From: Cytophagaceae bacterium
GTDB lineage: Bacteria; Bacteroidota; Bacteroidia; Cytophagales; Spirosomataceae
Length of the DNA: 57,330 bases
Direction of reading: 5' to 3'
Assembly: GCA_947486835.1 (NCBI GenBank)
Contig: CANKVC010000001.1
Coordinates: forward strand, 1 to 57,330
The translations under genes were made by a program, and so were the position numbers. The notes below the pieces were generated by a model. It was not told the DNA's origin and made no database searches. It was given only the letters and a program-made list of their open reading frames with translations. This document shows, piece by piece, positions 1-33,523 of the stretch. Every line of letters begins with the position of its first letter. Position 1 is the first letter of the stretch.

Positions 1-1101
1 TACCAATAATATTATATTAAAGGATAAATATAAAAGAAAACCTATAAAACCAAAATTTATGAATGATTCTAAAACCGGAATATCGATGTATCTAAATCGA
101 TATCCAAAACCAAAAAGAAAATTAATAGGATTATCATTCCATAATTCTATGAAATAATTAAAATTACTCACTCTGCCCATCGCAGAATCATCTACATCCG
201 CTGTCTTCCCCCCTTTTAAACCTGTATTTACTGCCTTATATACTAAGGTTAAAAACGAGTTAAAATAATTATTTATAAGTTCTAAAAAAGAATATCGATT
301 ATTTAAAATATTTAAATAATATAATATTGACATATAAAAAGCTATAACATACCAATGAAAAACTTTAAAAAAACTTCTATAAGGTATCACAAATATTAGA
401 ACAGCCATATTAACTATAATAAGAGAAATAAATGTAACTCTGGTTTGGGTTAATACAATGACCAATAAACTAATCCATAAATTAGCGTGAGCTGCTAATC
501 GAACTATCGCACTATTTTTTAACCATAATGATAAATCATTTTTACATATCAATAAAATAGAGATAATAAACCCGGCTAAGCCATTCCTACTATACATATG
601 AGGATTTCCAGCAAAGTCACCAGTAGCACTTTTAAACTGTACTGTTGCTCTAGAACCAATTACATATGCTGGATTAGTCGAAATCGAATAGATTAAAGCT
701 AAATTAGTAATTAATGTAAAAAGGAGGATAATAATGGGTAAATAACCCTGAATATCATTTTTAGCTTTTAAAAGGAATAATAAGTAAAAAAACAAAAAAG
801 CAAAATTGATAATTTCAGTATTAAATGAACCTTTGTCCCCATTATAAAAAATAAAATAAAAAATTGCTATTAGTAAAAAAGAGATTCCAAATTGGAACAA
901 TAATATATTGGGCTTGTATCCAATTTTAACTGGGGTATTATTCATCATTAATGCGATTCCCACAAAATAACAAATACCCGTAAATATAGATCCTGAACCT
1001 AAACTAGTATACCCTTTTAAGAAATAAATAAGAGGCGGTCCTATCCATAAAAGAATAATCCCAATTGAACTTTTGAAATTAGAATATGAAAAAATATTCA
1101 A
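1..1101 (-). CDS. O-antigen ligase/polymerase (Wzy/WaaL-like) polytopic membrane protein, 3' end outside window
   Basis: Not in ORF track. Manual translation from TTG 1101 stays open to the window edge: MNIFSYSNFKSSIGIILLWIGPPLIYFLKG...VIVLTQTRVTFISL...DDSAMGRVSNF...NFLFGFGYR...IDIPVLESFINFGFIG. Many TM segments plus TxxR, SxxxR and GxG motifs typical of this family. Confidence 0.7.
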   Translation of the reverse strand, partial: MNIFSYSNFKSSIGIILLWIGPPLIYFLKGYTSLGSGSIFTGICYFVGIALMMNNTPVKIGYKPNILLFQFGISFLLIAIFYFIFYNGDKGSFNTEIINFAFLFFYLLFLLKAKNDIQGYLPIIILLFTLITNLALIYSISTNPAYVIGSRATVQFKSATGDFAGNPHMYSRNGLAGFIISILLICKNDLSLWLKNSAIVRLAAHANLWISLLVIVLTQTRVTFISLIIVNMAVLIFVIPYRSFFKVFHWYVIAFYMSILYYLNILNNRYSFLELINNYFNSFLTLVYKAVNTGLKGGKTADVDDSAMGRVSNFNYFIELWNDNPINFLFGFGYRFRYIDIPVLESFINFGFIGFLLYLSFNIILLV

Positions 1102-1127
1102 ATTTTTTATTTTAAATAAAATGGAAG

Positions 1128-1201
<74 letters not shown>

Positions 1202-1260
1202 AATAAATAAAAAGTCAATTTATTTAAATGTGTTAAACACTCCTAAATAAATTGACTAAG

Positions 1261-1334
1261 TCGGGGTGGCAGGATTCGAACCTACGACCTCTTGGTCCCA
1301 AACCAAGCGCGATACCGGGCTACGCTACACCCCG
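1261..1334 (-). tRNA. tRNA-Pro(UGG)
   Basis: CGGGGTG...CTTGG-TTTGGGA-CCAAG...GGTTCGAATCC...CACCCCG-A; C1:G72, A73, anticodon TGG. Confidence 0.96.
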
Positions 1335-1344
1335 AAAATTAGTG

Positions 1345-1431
1345 CGGAGAGAGAGGGATTCGAACCCTCGGTACCGTTGCCAGTACGACAGTTTAGCAAA
1401 CTGTTCCTTTCGGCCTCTCAGGCATCTCTCC
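1345..1431 (-). tRNA. tRNA-Ser(GCU)
   Basis: GGAGAGA...ACAGT-TTGCTAA-ACTGT, long variable arm, GGGTTCGAATCCC, TCTCTCC-G; anticodon GCT. Confidence 0.96.
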
Positions 1432-1448
1432 TAGCCTTTAAGAGAGCA

Positions 1449-1456
1449 CAAAAATA
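1449..1456 (-). promoter_or_regulatory. Bacteroidota -7 promoter box for the Ser-Pro-Arg tRNA cluster
   Basis: Minus-strand TATTTTTG matches TAnnTTTG, 17 nt upstream of the tRNA-Ser 5' end. Confidence 0.6.
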
Positions 1457-1491
1457 AGAAATTTATTTATATTTCTATAATCAAATGTCAT

Positions 1492-2988
1492 TTATTTTAC
1501 CAAATCAAAAGTTGACACAGTTTTACCTTCCAAAATCGTATTACCCATCAAAAATAAATCTATATTTCTAGCCGCTTCCCTACCTTCAGAAATACCCCAT
1601 ACTACCAACGATTGTCCTCTTCGAGCATCGCCAGCAACAAATATTTTATCTTGACTCGTTTGATAAGTTGAATCAGTTATAATATTGCCGCGTTCATCTA
1701 AAGATATCCCAAGTGAATTAATTTCTTTTACTAAACTACCATGGTCAGTATGTAAAAATCCAGCAGCAATTAAAGCTAACTCACATGGTATTTCTCTATG
1801 ATTAATAACTTTATTGACCATTTTACCATCTTGTACTTCATTTACAATATCACCAATAAGTAAACTTGTCAATTGGCCATTTTCATCTTTAATAAATTCC
1901 TCTAAAGAGATAGACCATAAACGATCTACGCCTTCGTCATGTGAAGTTGAAGTGCGCAACATATTTGGCCAATTAGGCCAAGGCGTATTATCTGGCCTTT
2001 CAGAAGAAGGCTTAGGCATTACTTCTATTTGAGTAATTGATTTTGCCTTATGCCGATTTGAAGTACCCACACAATCAGATCCCGTATCTCCACCACCAAT
2101 GACAACGACATTTTTTCCAGTGGCTAAAATATTAGCATCAATATAAGATTCTCCTTTATGGTTATGCAAAAGTGAAATATTCGCAACACGTTTATTCTGT
2201 TGAGATAAAAATTCCATTGCAGGATAAATACCAATAGCATCATTCCCTTTTGATTGAATAATACGTGGTGTAGTAGAACCTGTTGCAATCAAAATAGCAT
2301 CAAAATCAGCCTGTAATTTGGATAATTTAATTTCTGATCCAATTTGAACGTTCGTTTCAAATTTAATACCCTCCTTCTCCATCAAGTCAACTCGTCTTTT
2401 AACAATATTTTTATCCAATTTGAAATCAGGAATACCATAGCGCAATAATCCTCCAATTTGATCAGCACGCTCATAAACGGTTACACTATGACCCGCTTTA
2501 TTTAATTGACTCGCTGCAGCTAACCCAGCTGGACCCGAACCAATAATGGCCACATTTTTATCTGTACGCTTAGAAGGAACTTGAGGTTGAACCCACCCTT
2601 CGGAAAAAGCCTTTTCAATAATTGACTTTTCAATTAATTCAATGGCAACGGCTGGCTTATTAATTCCTAATACGCATGATGATTCACAAGGCGCAGGACA
2701 AATTCTTCCGGTAAACTCAGGAAAATTATTTGTACTAACTAAAATCTCATATGCATATCTCCAATTTTCTTCATAAACAGCATCATTAAATTCAGGAATA
2801 ATATTTCCTAAAGGACAACCATTATGACAAAATGGTGTTCCGCAATCCATGCACCTACTAGCTTGTTCTTTTGTTTCTAAAGGCGTCGGAATTATTTCAA
2901 TTTCTAAATAATCATTAACTCGCTCAGCAATTGGCCTTTTGGTAGCAACTTTTCTATCAACTTCTAAAAATCCTGTTGGCTTGCCCAT
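1492..2988 (-). CDS. gltD: Glutamate synthase small (beta) subunit
   Basis: MGKPTGF start, RCMDCGTPFCHNGCP and GRICPAPCESSC Fe-S motifs, GSGPAG and GGGDTGSDC nucleotide-binding motifs, GQSLVVW; 5 nt downstream of gltB. Confidence 0.97.
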   Translation of the reverse strand: MGKPTGFLEVDRKVATKRPIAERVNDYLEIEIIPTPLETKEQASRCMDCGTPFCHNGCPLGNIIPEFNDAVYEENWRYAYEILVSTNNFPEFTGRICPAPCESSCVLGINKPAVAIELIEKSIIEKAFSEGWVQPQVPSKRTDKNVAIIGSGPAGLAAASQLNKAGHSVTVYERADQIGGLLRYGIPDFKLDKNIVKRRVDLMEKEGIKFETNVQIGSEIKLSKLQADFDAILIATGSTTPRIIQSKGNDAIGIYPAMEFLSQQNKRVANISLLHNHKGESYIDANILATGKNVVVIGGGDTGSDCVGTSNRHKAKSITQIEVMPKPSSERPDNTPWPNWPNMLRTSTSHDEGVDRLWSISLEEFIKDENGQLTSLLIGDIVNEVQDGKMVNKVINHREIPCELALIAAGFLHTDHGSLVKEINSLGISLDERGNIITDSTYQTSQDKIFVAGDARRGQSLVVWGISEGREAARNIDLFLMGNTILEGKTVSTFDLVK

Positions 2989-2993
2989 TTCCT

Positions 2994-5900
2994 CTATTTT
3001 TTTAATTCAATTTGAATATCTGTGTATACTTTATTTTTATCATTCATCACATCCGTAATACTTAATTTTCTTACAGCTAATGCATTACGATAATCCGTTG
3101 GCAAAACTTTTTTAAACTGATTCGAAACAGAATCAAAATTATCCAATACCGATTTACCTTTAACCGAATGAGTAAAATCAATATGTTTTTGTAAAAACAT
3201 TTTAATGATAACTTTATCTTCTTGGCTTAAATCTGTTATTTCAACCATTTCACGATTAACCTTAGACTCAAAATCATTTTTTTCATCTAGAACATATGCC
3301 ACACCTCCGGACATACCTGCCCCAAAATTTCGACCAGTTTTTCCCAATATTATAACAATTCCACCTGTCATATATTCGCAACCATGATCACCAATACCTT
3401 CAACCACAATTTTTGCCCCTGAATTCCTTACACAAAAACGCTCTCCTGCCATTCCAGCTAAATATGCCTCACCAGATGTAGCTCCATAAAATGAAACATT
3501 TCCTACAATAGAATTTTCTGATGCTACAAATGTTGAATTCCTGAAAGGATAGGCTATGATCGTCGATCCACACATTCCTTTTCCAATGTAATCATTTGAA
3601 TCACCTTCGATTTCTAATTTCAAACCTTTAACAGAAAATGCTCCAAAAGACTGACCAGCCGTTCCACTAAATTTGAAGTGAATTAAATCTGATTTCAATC
3701 CCTTTTCACCATATTTTTTAGTTATTTCATTAGAAATAATAGTACCGACGGTTCGATTAACATTTATAATAGGTAATTCAGCATACGTTTCTTTTTGATT
3801 AAGCAACGAATCTTTTGCTAAGTCTAACAATTTCCAATCTAATTGATCAGCCATTCCATGATCCTGCTCTTCAGATTTATAAACAGGTACAGATGAATCC
3901 TGATTACTGTAAGATAAAATAGGTGAAAGATCCAAGTTTTTATACTTCCAATGTGATGATACATCTCGCATCTCTAAAAGATCTACACGACCCACCATAT
4001 CATTAATCTTCCTGAAACCTAATTCAGCCATTATTTCCCTCAATTCCTCTGCTAAAAAGTAAAACAAATGCACAACATGATCTGGATTACCTGTATATAA
4101 TGCTCTTAAATCAGGATTTTGAGTAGCAACGCCAACAGGACAAGTATTTAAATGACATTTTCTCATCATAATTCATCCTGCTGTAACTAAAGCAGCGGTA
4201 GCCACCCCAAATTCTTCGGCACCTAATAAAGCGGCAATTGCTATATCTCGACCGGTTTTGATTTGACCATCCGTTTGTATTGTTACTCTACCTCGTAATT
4301 TATTTTTAACTAAAGTTTGATGCGTCTCTGCTAAACCTAATTCCCAAGGTAAGCCCGCATGGCGAATGGAAGATAAAGGCGATGCACCCGTTCCTCCATC
4401 ATAACCTGCAATTAATATATGATCTGCATGTGCTTTTGCCACGCCAGCTGCTATTGTGCCTACTCCTGCCTCAGAGACTAGTTTTACCGAAATACGAGCT
4501 TCTCTATTTGCATTTTTTAAATCAAAAATCAATTGAGCTAAATCTTCAATCGAATAAATATCATGATGTGGTGGCGGAGAAATTAAACCAACACCGGGAG
4601 TTGAATGCCTAGTTTTACCTATCCAATCATCCACCTTATGACCAGGTAATTGTCCACCTTCACCAGGCTTTGCACCTTGAGCCATTTTTATTTGTAACTC
4701 AGTAGCATTAGTCAAATAATTCATAGTTACACCAAACCTACCCGATGCTACTTGTTTAATACTAGAATTCATCGAATCTCCATTGGCCATTTTCTGAAAC
4801 CTTATTGGATCTTCTCCCCCCTCCCCTGTATTTGACTTGCCACCAATACGATTCATGGCAATAGCCAAGGTAGTATGAGCTTCATAAGAAATTGATCCAA
4901 AAGACATTGCACCCGTGGCGAAACGCTTTAAAATACCTTCTATGGGTTCCACTTCATCTATTGAAATTGACTTCGAACTTTTAAATTTCAATAAACCTCT
5001 TAATGTAATTGCTTTATTCGCTTGATCATCAATTAATTTAGCGTATTTTTTGTATACTGAATAGTCGTTTAATTTAGTTGCTTGTTGCAATAAATGAATC
5101 GTTTGAGGATTAAACAAATGCTCCTCTCCTCTTTGTTTCCATTGATAAATTCCGCCAACTTCCAATTTAGGATTAGTTGATTTTAATACCTCATACCCAG
5201 ATTCATGCTTAATTAAAGCTTCTTTAGCTAATGTATCTAAGTCTACTCCTTCAATACGCGAAATAGAACCGGTAAAATACATATTAACTACGGTATGGTC
5301 TAAACCTAAAATCTCGAAAATTTGCGCTCCTTGATAAGACTGTAAAGTAGATATACCCATCTTAGAAAAAATCTTGAGTAACTCACCATTGACAGCTTTT
5401 ATATAATTGTATTCTAATTTTTCATATGACAAATTAGGATCTACTAATTTGTTCTCCTTCATCAACTTTATTGTCTCAAAAGCCATGTAAGGATTTATCG
5501 CAGAAGCTCCATAACCTATTAAAGTAGCAAAATGATGCGTTTCCCATACATCACCAGCTTCCAATATAATACCTACTTTTGCCCGTTTTTTAACACGAAT
5601 CAAATGATTATGGACTGCACCCAAGGCTAATAAAGAAGGAATAGGTGCATGGGATGAATCAATGCCGCGATCAGTCAGTAAAATAATCGAATAACCATCA
5701 TCTACAGCATCTTCCGCATAATTACAGATCCTGTCTAACGCTTTTTTTAGAACACCCGATTCATCAGAAGCACGGAAAGTCATGTGAATTGACTTGGTCT
5801 GAAATTTTTCATGATCAATCCAGCGAATTTTTTCTACCTCTTTATTTCGCAAAACTGGTTGCTGTATTTCTATTTGCTTACAATGACTTGGACTTTCTTC

Positions 5901-29631: not shown

Positions 29632-30499
29632 TTCTGAATTTACATTAAAACATTTACAACTACCATCTCCCATTCAAGAAATATTTGAAGATGAATGGCA
29701 AGAAAAAAAAATACAAGTATTTGTCAAAAGAGACGACTTGATACATCCAATTATTTCAGGTAATAAATGGCGCAAATTAAAGGAATATATTGGTTTAGCC
29801 CAAATAAATGCCTCTAATTCAATAATAAGTTTTGGAGGAGCCTATTCAAATCATTTATACGCTTTGTCATATGTTGGCAATCAATTTAATATAAAAACAA
29901 TAGGAATTATAAGAGGAAATGAATTGTCCATAAACAGCAATTCATATTTAAAGCAAATGTCAGAATGGGGAATGGATTTGCATTTTCTAGATAGGGAATC
30001 TTACCGAAAAAAAATAATCCCTGAAGAAATAGAAACAGAAAATGTAATCGTTATACCAGAAGGTGGCTTTTCAAAAGTAGGCGTATTAGGACTGGAAGGG
30101 TTAAAAAATGAATTAAATAAACAAATACAGGCTGACTACATTATTACTGCGGTTGGAACAGGAACGACAGCCATAGGAATTTCCAAATTCCTCAAAATAA
30201 AAACAATTGGAATACTCACCTTAAATAATTTAACAGAAATTGAACAAAATAGTCAGGAATTTGACCTAGATAACTTTTTAGAAATTAAAACAAATTACAT
30301 TTTCGGGAAATACGCAAAAGACTCTCAAGTTTTAAATGAATTTTGCGACACTTTTAACAAAAAACATCAAATATTAATAGAACCTACCTATACGGGAAGA
30401 ATGTTTTATGGATTATATGACTTAATCAGAAACAATTACTTCCCTAAAAATTCTAAGTTAATTGCCTTACATACAGGGGGAATAAAATTACCCCACTGA
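29624..30499 (+). CDS. ACC deaminase / D-cysteine desulfhydrase family PLP enzyme
   Basis: [46 protein letters not shown]; start placed at ATG 29624. Confidence 0.88.
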
Positions 30500-31936
30500 G
30501 CCTTCTAAAGATATAGCCAATAATTTCTGAGCTTCTACTGCAAATTCCATAGGAAGTTGATTTAATACTTCTTTCGCATACCCATTAACGATTAAGGCGA
30601 TAGCTGTCTCAGTAGATAAACCCCTTTGATTGCAATAAAATATCTGATCCTCTCCTATTTTAGAGGTTGTTGCTTCGTGTTCAACAGAAGAAGTTGGATT
30701 TTTAACTTCAAGGTATGGGAACGTGTGAGCCCCACACTTATCTCCTAATAGCAAGGAATCGCATTGGCTAAAGTTTTTGGCATGATCAGCTCTTTTGGAA
30801 ACCTGAACTAATCCACGATACGAATTTTGGGAAAAACCAGCTGAAATTCCTTTCGAAACAATTCTCGATTTTGAATGCTTACCCAAATGAATCATTTTGG
30901 TGCCGGTATCAGCTTGTTGGTAATTATTAGTCACCGCAACAGAGTAAAACTCTCCAATGGAATAATCTCCTTTCAAAACAACTGAAGGATATTTCCAAGT
31001 AACGGCAGAACCTGTTTCCACTTGAGTCCAAGATAATTTGGAATGAGCACCATCACAAATACCTCTCTTAGTCACAAAATTATAAATACCCCCTTTTCCT
31101 TCTTTATCCCCTGGATACCAGTTTTGAACAGTTGAATATTTCACTTCCGCACCGGAATGAACAAAAATCTCCACGACTGCTGCGTGCAATTGATTTTCAT
31201 CACGCATCGGAGCAGTACATCCTTCCAAATAACTCACGTATGATTCATCTTCAGCGACAATTAAAGTTCTTTCGAACTGTCCTGTACCTGAAGCATTAAT
31301 TCTAAAATAAGTAGACAACTCCATTGGACAACGAACTCCTTTGGGTATGAAACAGAAAGATCCGTCAGAAAAAACAGCAGAATTTAATGCAGCAAAATAA
31401 TTGTCCTTTACAGGCACAACGCTACCAAGGTACTTTTTTATCAATTCAGGGTGTTCTTTAACAGCTTCTGAAATGGAACAAAAAATGACACCTTTTTCAG
31501 ATAAGGTTTCTTTAAAAGTAGTGGCAACAGACACTGAATCAATGACTGCATCTACGGCAACATTCGATAATCTTTTTTGTTCATCAAGGCTAATACCTAA
31601 TTTCTCAAATGTCCTTCTAAGTTCAGGATCGATCTCATCTAAGGAGTTTAATTGCTTTTTTTGAACGGGAGCTGAATAATATTTTAACGATTGATAGTCT
31701 GTCGGCTTATATTTTACGTTCGCCCAAGTTGGCTCCTCTAACGTTTTCCAATGTCTAAAAGCAGCTAAACGCCAATTTAATAGCCAATCTGGTTCGTTTT
31801 TTTTCTCAGAGATAAAATGAATAGTAGATTCATCCAAACCAATGGGAGCTTCATCCGTTTCAAAAAATGATTCGAAACCATATTTATAATCTGAGCTAGT
31901 AACTTCTTGTAATATATCGTCTACTTTATCTGCCAT
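30488..31936 (-). CDS. sufB: Fe-S cluster assembly protein SufB
   Basis: [56 protein letters not shown]. Confidence 0.98.
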
Positions 31937-32020: not shown

Positions 32021-32485
32021 CTAAAATAATGGAGTATTTCTGATCAAACTTTCTTCTAACGAAATAAAAGTCTCAGTCCTTTGAATGCCATTAACTTTTT
32101 GAATTTTATCATGTAAAACTTCTCTAAGATGCTGAGTATCTCTACAAATAATTTTGGCGAATATCGAATATATGCCCGTCGTATAATGAATATTAACCAC
32201 CTCAGGTATTTCCTCAAGTTGTTTTGCTACATCTGCATATAAACTACTTTTATCTAGATATATACCCAAAAAAGCACATATATCCCACCCGATTTTTGAG
32301 TAATCAATGAGTAATTGTGAACCTTTTACGATACCTAAAGCTTGCATTTTTTTCATGCGAACATGTACCGTCCCCCCAGAAACTTCTAATCGATTCCCAA
32401 TTTCAGTAAAGGGTAAATTAGCATCTGATACTAAAATTTCTAATATTTTATAATCAAGTGGGTCAAGGTCTTGCTTACGATCCAT
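32021..32485 (-). CDS. asnC: Lrp/AsnC-family regulator, AsnC subfamily
   Basis: HTH GTVHVRMKKM and C-domain HYTTGIYSIFAKIIC...KIQKVNGIQRTETFISL resemble E. coli AsnC (GTIHVR, YTTGHYSIF, IQSTET; recalled, not aligned). Confidence 0.85.
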   Translation of the reverse strand: MDRKQDLDPLDYKILEILVSDANLPFTEIGNRLEVSGGTVHVRMKKMQALGIVKGSQLLIDYSKIGWDICAFLGIYLDKSSLYADVAKQLEEIPEVVNIHYTTGIYSIFAKIICRDTQHLREVLHDKIQKVNGIQRTETFISLEESLIRNTPLF

Positions 32486-32554
32486 GAATAAATTAAAATT
32501 AAATAGTGTATTTGTTAAAATATTTACAAAAAAAAGACAATTTTATTAAATAAT

Positions 32555-32585
32555 TTTGAATTTATACTTTACCGCATTATATTTG
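32555..32585 (+). promoter_or_regulatory. Bacteroidota -33/-7 promoter of the tRNA-like RNA
   Basis: TTTG (32555-32558), 19-nt spacer, TATATTTG (32578-32585). Confidence 0.65.
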
Positions 32586-32619
32586 TTGACTTATTAATTA
32601 CAAAGGTAGTTAAATTTAT

Positions 32620-32765
32620 TGTAGGGTGATGAAATTGGCAGACGTGCCCTCCTGTCTCGGGGGTGGTGATTCTGGGATAAACGCGGCATAACGGGTTGAC
32701 CACTAAGTTAGTTCTGTGTCGTGGCTAACCACATCTTGGAGGTTCGAATCCTTCTCCTACAGCCA
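32620..32765 (+). ncRNA. 146-nt tRNA-Asp(GUC)-like RNA with 74-nt variable domain and encoded CCA
   Basis: Acceptor TGTAGGG/TCCTACA-G-CCA; D-arm ATG-AAATTGGCAGA-CGT; anticodon arm CCCTC-CTGTCTC-GGGGG (GTC at 32654-32656); insert 32664-32737; T-arm GGAGG-TTCGAAT-CCTTC. Confidence 0.9.
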
Positions 32766-32798
32766 TAAGTTTTTAGTTTGTTGATGAAGTGTAATGTT

Positions 32799-32829
32799 AA
32801 AAGCAATCCTATTTTAGGATTGCTTTTTT
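32799..32829 (+). terminator. Rho-independent terminator after the tRNA-like RNA
   Basis: AAAAGCAATCCT-ATTTT-AGGATTGCTTTTTT. Confidence 0.88.
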
Positions 32830-32887
32830 ATTTGGTATAAAGTCTATAAATTGAGTAGAGAAATTTAACCTTTTAAATGATATCAAC

Positions 32888-33523
32888 ATGAGTTTACGTT
32901 TAGGTGACATCGCACCCGATTTCCAAGCGGAATCAACTTTAGGGCACATATCCTTCCATAATTGGATCGGAGATTCATGGGCATTGTTTTTTAGCCACCC
33001 TGCTGATTTTACTCCAGTATGTACAACTGAATTAGGTAAAACAGCACTTCTTAATGGAGAATTTACTAAAAGAGGAGTAAAAGCAATTGCCATATCCGTA
33101 GACTCCTTAGAATCTCACAATAAATGGGTACCTGATATCGAGGAGGTTAATTCAGTACAAATGAATTTTCCAATTATTGCAGATCCAGAAAAGAAAGTAG
33201 CATTACTATACGATATGATTCACCCAAATGCATCTGAAAAAGCAACGGTAAGATCTGTATTTATTATAGGACCAGACAAAAAAATAAAGTTGACATTAAC
33301 CTATCCAGCCTCTACAGGTAGAAATTTTACAGAAATTTTACGCGTTATTGATTCTCTACAACTAACGGCAAACTACCAAGTAGCCACACCAGCAGACTGG
33401 GTGAATGGAGAAGATGTTATTATTACACCAGCCGTATCTGATGCTGATGCAGTGGCGAAATTTCCTAAGGGATTTACCAGTGTTAAACCATATTTGAGAA
33501 AAACACCTCAACCGAACTTGTAA
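32888..33523 (+). CDS. 1-Cys peroxiredoxin (Prx6 family)
   Basis: FSHPADFTPVCTTELG, YPASTGRNF, ATPADW, PYLR. Confidence 0.95.
   Translation: MSLRLGDIAPDFQAESTLGHISFHNWIGDSWALFFSHPADFTPVCTTELGKTALLNGEFTKRGVKAIAISVDSLESHNKWVPDIEEVNSVQMNFPIIADPEKKVALLYDMIHPNASEKATVRSVFIIGPDKKIKLTLTYPASTGRNFTEILRVIDSLQLTANYQVATPADWVNGEDVIITPAVSDADAVAKFPKGFTSVKPYLRKTPQPNL

Follow-up and report, generated by a model that had tools for sequence, protein, structure and literature searches.

The window analysed here, a 57,330-nt stretch of a Cytophagaceae bacterium, contains a gene for a tRNA-like RNA of 146 nt, flanked upstream by a divergent AsnC/Lrp-family regulator gene and downstream by an intrinsic terminator. 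The features of the locus, in window coordinates, are as follows.

32021..32485, minus strand: AsnC/Lrp-family regulator gene (ORF, 154 aa), divergent from the tRNA-like RNA and 134 nt apart from it
32555..32585, plus strand: candidate promoter of Bacteroidota type, with TTTG at 32555, 19 nt, and TATATTTG at 32578-32585
32620..32765, plus strand: tRNA-like RNA, whole gene, 146 nt (133 bits with covariance model R1; covariation; RNA contigs over the span)
32620-32626 (TGTAGGG) / 32755-32761 (TCCTACA), plus strand: acceptor stem, with U1-A72, G2-C71 and U3-A70
32629..32645, plus strand: tRNA-Leu-like D arm, with a 3-bp stem (32629-32631/32643-32645), G18G19, C20 and A20a
32647..32663, plus strand: anticodon-like arm, stem CCCTC (32647-32651) / GGGGG (32659-32663)
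within this arm, plus strand: anticodon-like loop CUGUCUC (DNA CTGTCTC), GUC, with G34, U35, C36, U37 and C38
32664..32737, plus strand: variable domain, 74 nt (covarying helices 4-6; constrained fold)
32665-32668/32732-32735, plus strand: 4-bp basal helix of the variable domain, followed by a bulge and then a 3-bp helix (32673-32675/32729-32731)
32676-32681/32725-32728, plus strand: conserved internal loop GAUAAA/CUAA of the variable domain, with the distal hairpin beyond
32738..32754, plus strand: T arm with a predicted weak EF-Tu-binding stem (G49-C65, G50-U64, A51-U63)
32762 and 32763-32765, plus strand: discriminator G73 and CCA, read from the sequence
32799..32829, plus strand: intrinsic terminator, 13-pair stem and T tail (0.3 expected in shuffles)

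Direct parsing placed the cloverleaf arms, the 74-nt domain and U37 where the initial annotation had described them, and the acceptor branch is the normal 7/5. The D loop had been called Leu/type-II-like, in agreement with a D arm that is identical at 14-16 of 20 positions to the four tRNA-Leu of the host genome and at no more than 10 of 20 to any other tRNA; A15:U48 is present, and two unpaired bases precede the T stem, as in tRNA-Leu. Judged by sequence, the body of the RNA is likely derived from a tRNA-Leu-type scaffold. The genome-encoded CCA, which had been given weight as a distinguishing feature, is real at this locus but incidental, being encoded in 28 of 182 family members, and its importance was overrated. 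As a lone strand, the RNA folded no better than shuffled sequences (z −0.42), and the structural case is therefore comparative. The internal loop GAUAAA/CUAA resembles a UAA/GAN motif; a literature search on that motif by name returned no paper with the term. A sub-motif of the distal arm, GGTTGACCAC (window 32694-32703), recurs in many bacterial and phage copies with unrelated flanks.

The promoter-like boxes at 32555-32585 contain the letters originally claimed and are treated as a candidate only, on the basis of the Bacteroidota promoter consensus; a TAnnTTTG box lies at most 70 nt upstream in 61 of 119 family copies. The claimed terminator 3′ of the RNA was likewise found, against 0.3 expected by chance. 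Two clues to function had been missed, namely the U1-A72 pair and the divergent AsnC-type gene. The top NCBIfam match of this regulator is AsnC (NF008384) at 159.6 bits, under the cut-off of 227. The pairing of the AsnC-type gene with the tRNA-like RNA is kept in 29 of 30 congener loci, and the two are divergent in 23 of the 27 full-size carriers of a 150-genome class sample; a separate check of 90 loci, which left out 26 loci whose RNA the search motif missed, found 50 divergent pairs, 38 loci without AsnC and 2 that were too short. Further out, sufB (window 30488-31936, minus strand) follows the AsnC-type gene on the same strand, a neighbourhood seen again in several Cytophagales loci, and a gene for a 1-Cys-type peroxiredoxin (window 32888-33523, plus strand) follows the tRNA-like RNA.

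The RNA had been expected to escape annotators, and it does: both ARAGORN and an Rfam gathering search over the window reported four ordinary tRNAs only, the latter with no RF00005 match to the tRNA-like RNA, and when Rfam was searched by E-value over 32400-32950, the five matches were at chance level and none was to a tRNA family. No covariance model of tmRNA, Y RNA, tRNA-Sec or the other Rfam 15 families matched at the RNA, and a match to an already characterised family, which had been raised as a possibility, was thus looked for and not found in Rfam. The tmRNA of the host genome sits elsewhere, on C4. A tRNA-His with an intron, called by ARAGORN with introns allowed and a lowered threshold, was one of 168 junk calls and is meaningless. 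No prior description of the family was found in the largely open-access literature searched.

Transcription, conservation and distribution of the RNA

Part of a 501-nt stretch of the locus occurs in 11 runs recorded as RNA, of which eight were examined, all as contigs. In X2, X10 and X12 the summed contig depth on the gene was ~1000-5800, against 0-11 next to it, values that are given per contig without strand, are swelled by phage and other homologues, and come from runs found using this very stretch. Cover was moderate in X3 and low or partial in X4, X5 and X14, and X7 had no cover of the gene. Both borders of the insert, with the anticodon arm and with the T arm, are spanned by contigs free of differences, and the eight runs gave no splice joint, in contigs that can drop rare forms. 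Splicing to a ~76-nt tRNA-Asp, an outcome considered at the outset, was therefore looked for and not seen; the insert is retained, and the tRNA-like RNA is transcribed unspliced. One contig in X10 and one in X12 match up to 32765 and then run on into adapter-like letters, presumably sequencing adapter, which suggests that the 3′ end of the RNA is processed at CCA.

By DNA search, 44 of 61 related genomes, counting the host genome, have a match, and a pattern scan of a species collection gave 124 loci, all Bacteroidota-titled, from Cytophagales, Saprospiraceae and other Chitinophagales, and some Flavobacteriales; ~1600 stored stretches are estimated to hold the pattern, by extrapolation from 5 of 64 parts scanned. 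The copies in congeners match those of Aquirufa genomes letter for letter, and the window probably comes from this genus. The scan required C32, R34 and UCUC, and families missing from its 124 loci are no evidence of absence; because the pattern fixed these positions, the loop positions were counted anew in 53 members recovered by other means, in which U35, C36 and C38 are invariant, G34 occurs in 48 and U33 in 43, and position 37 is never A. Among 182 distinct full-length copies, the variable domain ranges from 39 to 115 nt, U1-A72 is present in 181, and G2-C71 and G73 are present in all.

A covariance model was used to align 119 copies, comprising 116 distinct homologues, from 88 loci selected for diversity. 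Pairing is kept in 98.9% of cells, and 22 of 28 pairs show changes in both partners, among them pairs in the two basal helices of the extra domain, compared with 50-59% of cells and 5-8 pairs in slid-partner controls; the alignment was fitted to the structure, hence the figures lean towards it. The covariation is strong, in keeping with the original suggestion of a maintained RNA whose homologues carry compensatory changes, and the tRNA-shaped RNA with its oversized arm is both real and conserved. All 116 members keep U1-A72 and G2-C71, as well as U35, C36, C38 and G73, and position 37 is U in 109, G in 5 and C in 2; U33 is kept in 95 and changed in 21, and G34 is kept in 104 and changed in 12. 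Positions 32, 33 and 37 vary while the Asp marks and U1-A72 stay fixed.

The GUC anticodon and complete cloverleaf could be taken for an intron-containing, pseudo or unusual decoding tRNA-Asp, the more so as the host assembly holds no other tRNA-Asp, though it is also without Asn, Phe, Tyr, Trp, Thr and Ile tRNAs. This reading is opposed by contigs that run through the insert, with no joint in the eight RNA runs examined, by the covariation of the insert itself, by a position 37 that is never A, by the 21 changes of U33, and by the canonical tRNA-Asp that was found, when a normal gene was sought elsewhere, in the one-contig congener G015. The A37, invariant U33, short variable loop, strong EF-Tu stem and RF00005 detection of a decoding tRNA-Asp are all lacking; of the features of class II tRNA-Leu, the Leu-type D arm and long variable arm are present, and A73 and a Leu anticodon are not. 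A tRNA-Asp of this kind is already largely refuted, and we give it only a very slight chance. The initial annotation had taken the RNA to be probably non-decoding yet capable of being aminoacylated, a reading that came through those of its refuting checks that were run.

Tandem arrays of 3-5 copies were observed at L114:2420-3233, L162:290-1033 and L047:2027-2602, and the final copy in the L162 array has an insertion in the T loop. A copy in G048 (L236:1501-1579, minus strand) is 79 nt long, has no giant arm, carries the loop CUAUCUC (AUC) and is unlinked from AsnC. In other classes of the phylum, the RNA was found in 1 of 113 genomes (G180), together with its AsnC gene. This two-gene unit (L213:2105-2870), to which the congener G161 has no match, suggests horizontal transfer or a binning error.

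The RNA family is present in Bacteroidota and their phages: of 80 viral loci examined out of 120 returned, 79 have a full-length match, 42 adjoin other tRNA genes, and none lies beside AsnC. Such a distribution could be that of a decoy in phage-host conflict or stress, an abundant tRNA-Asp look-alike soaking up anticodon nucleases or tRNA-sensing factors. We consider this very improbable, given the fixed chromosomal site beside housekeeping genes and the gatB dependence and asparagine synthetase exclusion described below; phage copies, moreover, keep U1-A72 in 55 of 58 cases, as expected of a metabolic helper gene.

Co-occurrence with gatB, AsnC and asparagine synthetases

The RNA was found in 28 genomes of a class sample of 150 (at least 97% complete), for which 20 candidates per genome were scored, so that diverged copies may be missed, and two 87-nt ordinary tRNA matches were dropped; five apparent non-carriers re-searched with 150 candidates were still negative. 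All 28 carriers contained gatB, an AsnC orthologue (at least 50% identity) and AsnRS, compared with 85 of 122 non-carriers for gatB (113/150 overall) and 7 of 122 for AsnC (35 overall). Neither asnA nor asnB was found in any of the 27 full-size carriers, as against one or the other in 20 of the 122 non-carriers. The 28th carrier, G048, with its copy shrunken to 79 nt, is the only one with asnA.

GatCAB is not needed for Gln-tRNA where GlnRS is present. Among genomes without GlnRS, gatB occurs in 94 of 95, and because it is near-obligatory there, the 55 GlnRS-bearing genomes form the informative set. Nineteen of these keep gatB, and 14 of the 19 carry the RNA; of the other five, four instead encode a GatB fusion as their second AspRS, and the fifth, a 210-contig assembly, has neither. 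In GlnRS-bearing genomes without gatB, the RNA was found in 0 of 36. A held-out set of GlnRS-bearing class genomes outside the 150 draw, with the window's congeners excluded and two RNAs cut at contig ends, gave the RNA in 12 of 12 genomes with gatB versus 0 of 10 without. The losses go together within families f23, f25, f28, f65 and f96; Fisher values overstate the association because the genomes are related and kin are not independent. Two non-carriers, G279 and G337, are unpublished genomes, on which the pattern does not rest. In other classes, 12 genomes keep GlnRS and gatB without the RNA (AsnRS in 10 of 10 tested), so the link between the RNA and gatB is confined to the host class. GlnRS and GatCAB are covered for few Bacteroidetes in PMC3927822. 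Within the host's own 90%-complete assembly, gatA is present and gatB was not found; its near-complete congeners have gatB in 4 of 4, and G015 encodes canonical tRNA-Asp, tRNA-Asn, GlnRS and gatB, with no asnA or asnB over the cut-off.

The fusion of GatB with a second AspRS, ~1110 aa, was observed in G239 (C19:17848-21120, L333) and also in G271, G297 and G322 (L568-L570), that is, in all four genomes of family f91. Its make-up suggests a transamidosome in a single chain, which could be an alternative to the RNA. A His residue that is a putative mark of non-discriminating AspRS is present in 4 of 4 GatB-fused second AspRSs and in none of the 80 main AspRSs of the class or the 9 readable ones from other classes; the main enzymes carry Leu, Lys, Phe or Met at this place, and a literature search for support of the mark found no paper. 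The use of 'AsnRS-less' genomes as a reference for AspRS specificity proved void, since AsnRS was present in each of the five that were re-checked, where the E-value cut had broken it into two stretches; the other 24 apparent absences are not trusted.

In E. coli, asnC faces asnA. A positional exchange is seen at the site occupied here by the RNA: in G336 the same AsnC regulator (59% identical) faces asnB, and in G164 a more distant AsnC-type regulator does so. G076 and G300, in which asnB is present and gatB absent, have no RNA beside AsnC (L375, L384, just upstream) and instead show a short spacer and a terminator-like hairpin, whereas their family mates G274 and G325 have two RNA copies at the AsnC site.

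Identity marks and a proposed role in asparagine synthesis

According to PMC9976931, the Asp determinants are G73, G34, U35, C36 and C38, with G2-C71 as a minor one, and G1-C72 helps E. coli AspRS to place the 3′ end. By that account, the AspRS set is present in the tRNA-like RNA (G34 in 104/116 members, the others invariant), and G1-C72 of tRNA-Asp is replaced by U1-A72 in 116/116. The U1-A72 pair, according to PMC1635274, is the GatCAB determinant that drives amidation, the anticodon being irrelevant to GatCAB; the same paper reports that an extra base 20a cuts GatCAB activity ~10-fold on tRNA-Asn and ~100-fold on tRNA-Asp(U1-A72). Two bases lie between G19 and 21, which adds 20a, in the D loops of all 116 members. 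The RNA thus unites the AspRS set with the GatCAB mark, but it bears the hindering 20a base as well. The D and variable loops are placed near the GatB tail in PMC2811023. The tRNA-Asn of G015 (L401-L430 set) combines U1-A72 with a D loop as long as that of tRNA-Asp, and would therefore be a poor GatCAB substrate, or else the 20a rule is loose in this group.

In a GatB alignment, no column clearly separated carriers from non-carriers (overlap 0.39, versus 0.42 reached in 60 label shuffles). GatB positions 24, 104 and 122 (G015 numbering) differ in GlnRS-bearing carriers across many families, and the residue differences may reflect release from acting on Glu-tRNA-Gln. With the values of PMC3239215, the T stem comes to +2.1 kcal/mol (family median +0.7), compared with −1.1 for tRNA-Asp and +0.8 for tRNA-Asn of the congener; in that paper this very stem was measured as 0.4 tighter than the summed value. 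A weak EF-Tu stem occurs in 111 of 116 members.

Combined with the gene profile, these marks lead us to propose, with a probability of about 0.6, that the tRNA-like RNA is a dedicated non-decoding carrier on which AspRS and GatCAB make asparagine. AsnC would switch the RNA gene on when asparagine is short, and the transcript would be trimmed to U1 at a predicted 5′ end and provided with CCA at the 3′ end indicated by the RNA contigs. Ordinary AspRS would then load Asp via G34/U35/C36/C38, G73 and G2-C71, all of which the RNA carries, and GatCAB, whose gene co-occurs with it, would read U1-A72 and convert Asp to Asn. A position 37 that is never A, a loose U33, the weak T stem and the giant arm could together prevent misreading of Asp codons. 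In the weakest step, Asn might be released by hydrolysis or by a factor that perhaps binds the GAUAAA/CUAA loop, after which AsnRS would put the released Asn on tRNA-Asn. The RNA gene would thereby fill the place of asnA/asnB. The broader claim, that this tRNA-Leu-derived RNA is a reusable metabolic cofactor, forming with AspRS and GatCAB a third asparagine synthetase that is swappable with asnA/asnB under the same regulator and phage-borne as an RNA-only auxiliary metabolic gene, has in our estimate even odds.

On the one hand, the carrier role is favoured by the fixed AspRS and GatCAB marks, the linkage to gatB and AsnC, the exclusion of asnA/asnB and the exchange for asnB beside AsnC. On the other hand, it is opposed by the universal 20a antideterminant (116/116), the loss of G1-C72, the change of G34 in 12/116, the lack of a co-adapted GatB column, the absence of gatB from the host's own assembly, and a giant variable arm that lies near the GatB tail (PMC2811023). 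In addition, 98 of the 150 class genomes have no visible Asn route, that is, no RNA, asnA, asnB or GatB-AspRS fusion. A non-discriminating AspRS acting on tRNA-Asn is proposed for such bacteria, Bacteroidetes included, in PMC4206432; if host AspRSs charge tRNA-Asn, the RNA would be dispensable for this route, which could possibly make it a helper rather than a substrate.

A helper of this type might be a tRNA mimic under AsnC control, binding AspRS and GatCAB as a scaffold, sponge or sensor and so tuning the indirect tRNA-Asn route or signalling Asp/Asn status. It would explain the same marks and the same gatB and AsnC links, together with the high apparent abundance and the tandem copies of up to five, needs no release step and fits the 20a antideterminant. 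The exclusion of asnA/asnB in 27 of 27 carriers and the asnB swap at the AsnC site are, however, what a catalytic replacement predicts, and an AspRS sponge would lower, not raise, Asn output; we regard a mimic as rather unlikely. Staphylococci have a non-proteinogenic tRNA-Gly, on the model of which the RNA might instead be a dedicated donor from which a non-ribosomal transferase passes Asp or Asn to lipids, the cell envelope or protein N-termini. The weak EF-Tu stem estimated above for 111/116 members is compatible with a donor, and the conserved internal loop could recruit a partner, but no transferase gene recurs as a neighbour in the loci read, and both AsnC and the asnA/asnB exclusion are left unexplained, which renders a donor improbable.

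If true, asparagine synthesis on the carrier would explain why GatCAB is retained in many Bacteroidota with AsnRS and GlnRS and without asparagine synthetase, would correct asparagine auxotrophy predictions for common freshwater, marine and soil bacteria, and would give phages a compact means of raising asparagine supply. We know of no other pathway in which an amino acid is built on an RNA set aside for this purpose and not used in decoding. Under another mechanism the family is still abundant and uncatalogued, and even under the weaker readings alone it is an uncatalogued tRNA-derived RNA family.

Comparison with known systems

The closest parallels to the proposed carrier lie in the indirect Asn-tRNA pathway, as represented in PMC1635274, PMC4206432 and PMC2811023, with which it shares U1-A72, G73, a T stem of the weak type of tRNA-Asn/Gln, and the retention of GatCAB next to AsnRS and GlnRS in the absence of asnA/asnB; the last pattern is noted in PMC4206432. 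Unlike the tRNA-Asn of that pathway, the RNA has an Asp anticodon, so that a discriminating AspRS would suffice, a Leu-type D arm with 20a, an arm of 39-115 nt and no A37, and its product would not be directly usable for decoding. With bacterial tRNA-Asp, as described in PMC9976931, it has in common G34, U35, C36, C38, G73 and G2-C71, but it differs in U1-A72 instead of G1-C72, U37 instead of A37, the weak T stem and the class II body. Class II tRNA-Leu (RF00005) resembles it in the D arm, A15:U48 and the long variable arm, and R1 scores class II tRNAs at 45-63 bits; the tRNA-like RNA, in contrast, has G73 rather than A73, an Asp-type loop and a several-fold longer variable domain with an internal loop.

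As in the E. coli asnC-asnA pair, an AsnC-like regulator stands back-to-back with its likely target; here, by contrast, what the regulator faces is an RNA gene, its own score falls short of the AsnC equivalog cut-off, and AsnC control is predicted. Finally, the allo-tRNAs and selC* tRNAs are likewise long-armed tRNA variants that are missed by scanners and occur in bacteria and phages, whereas, according to PMC5389517, their acceptor branch is 8/4 or 9/3 and they can decode, unlike the 7/5 branch of the tRNA-like RNA.
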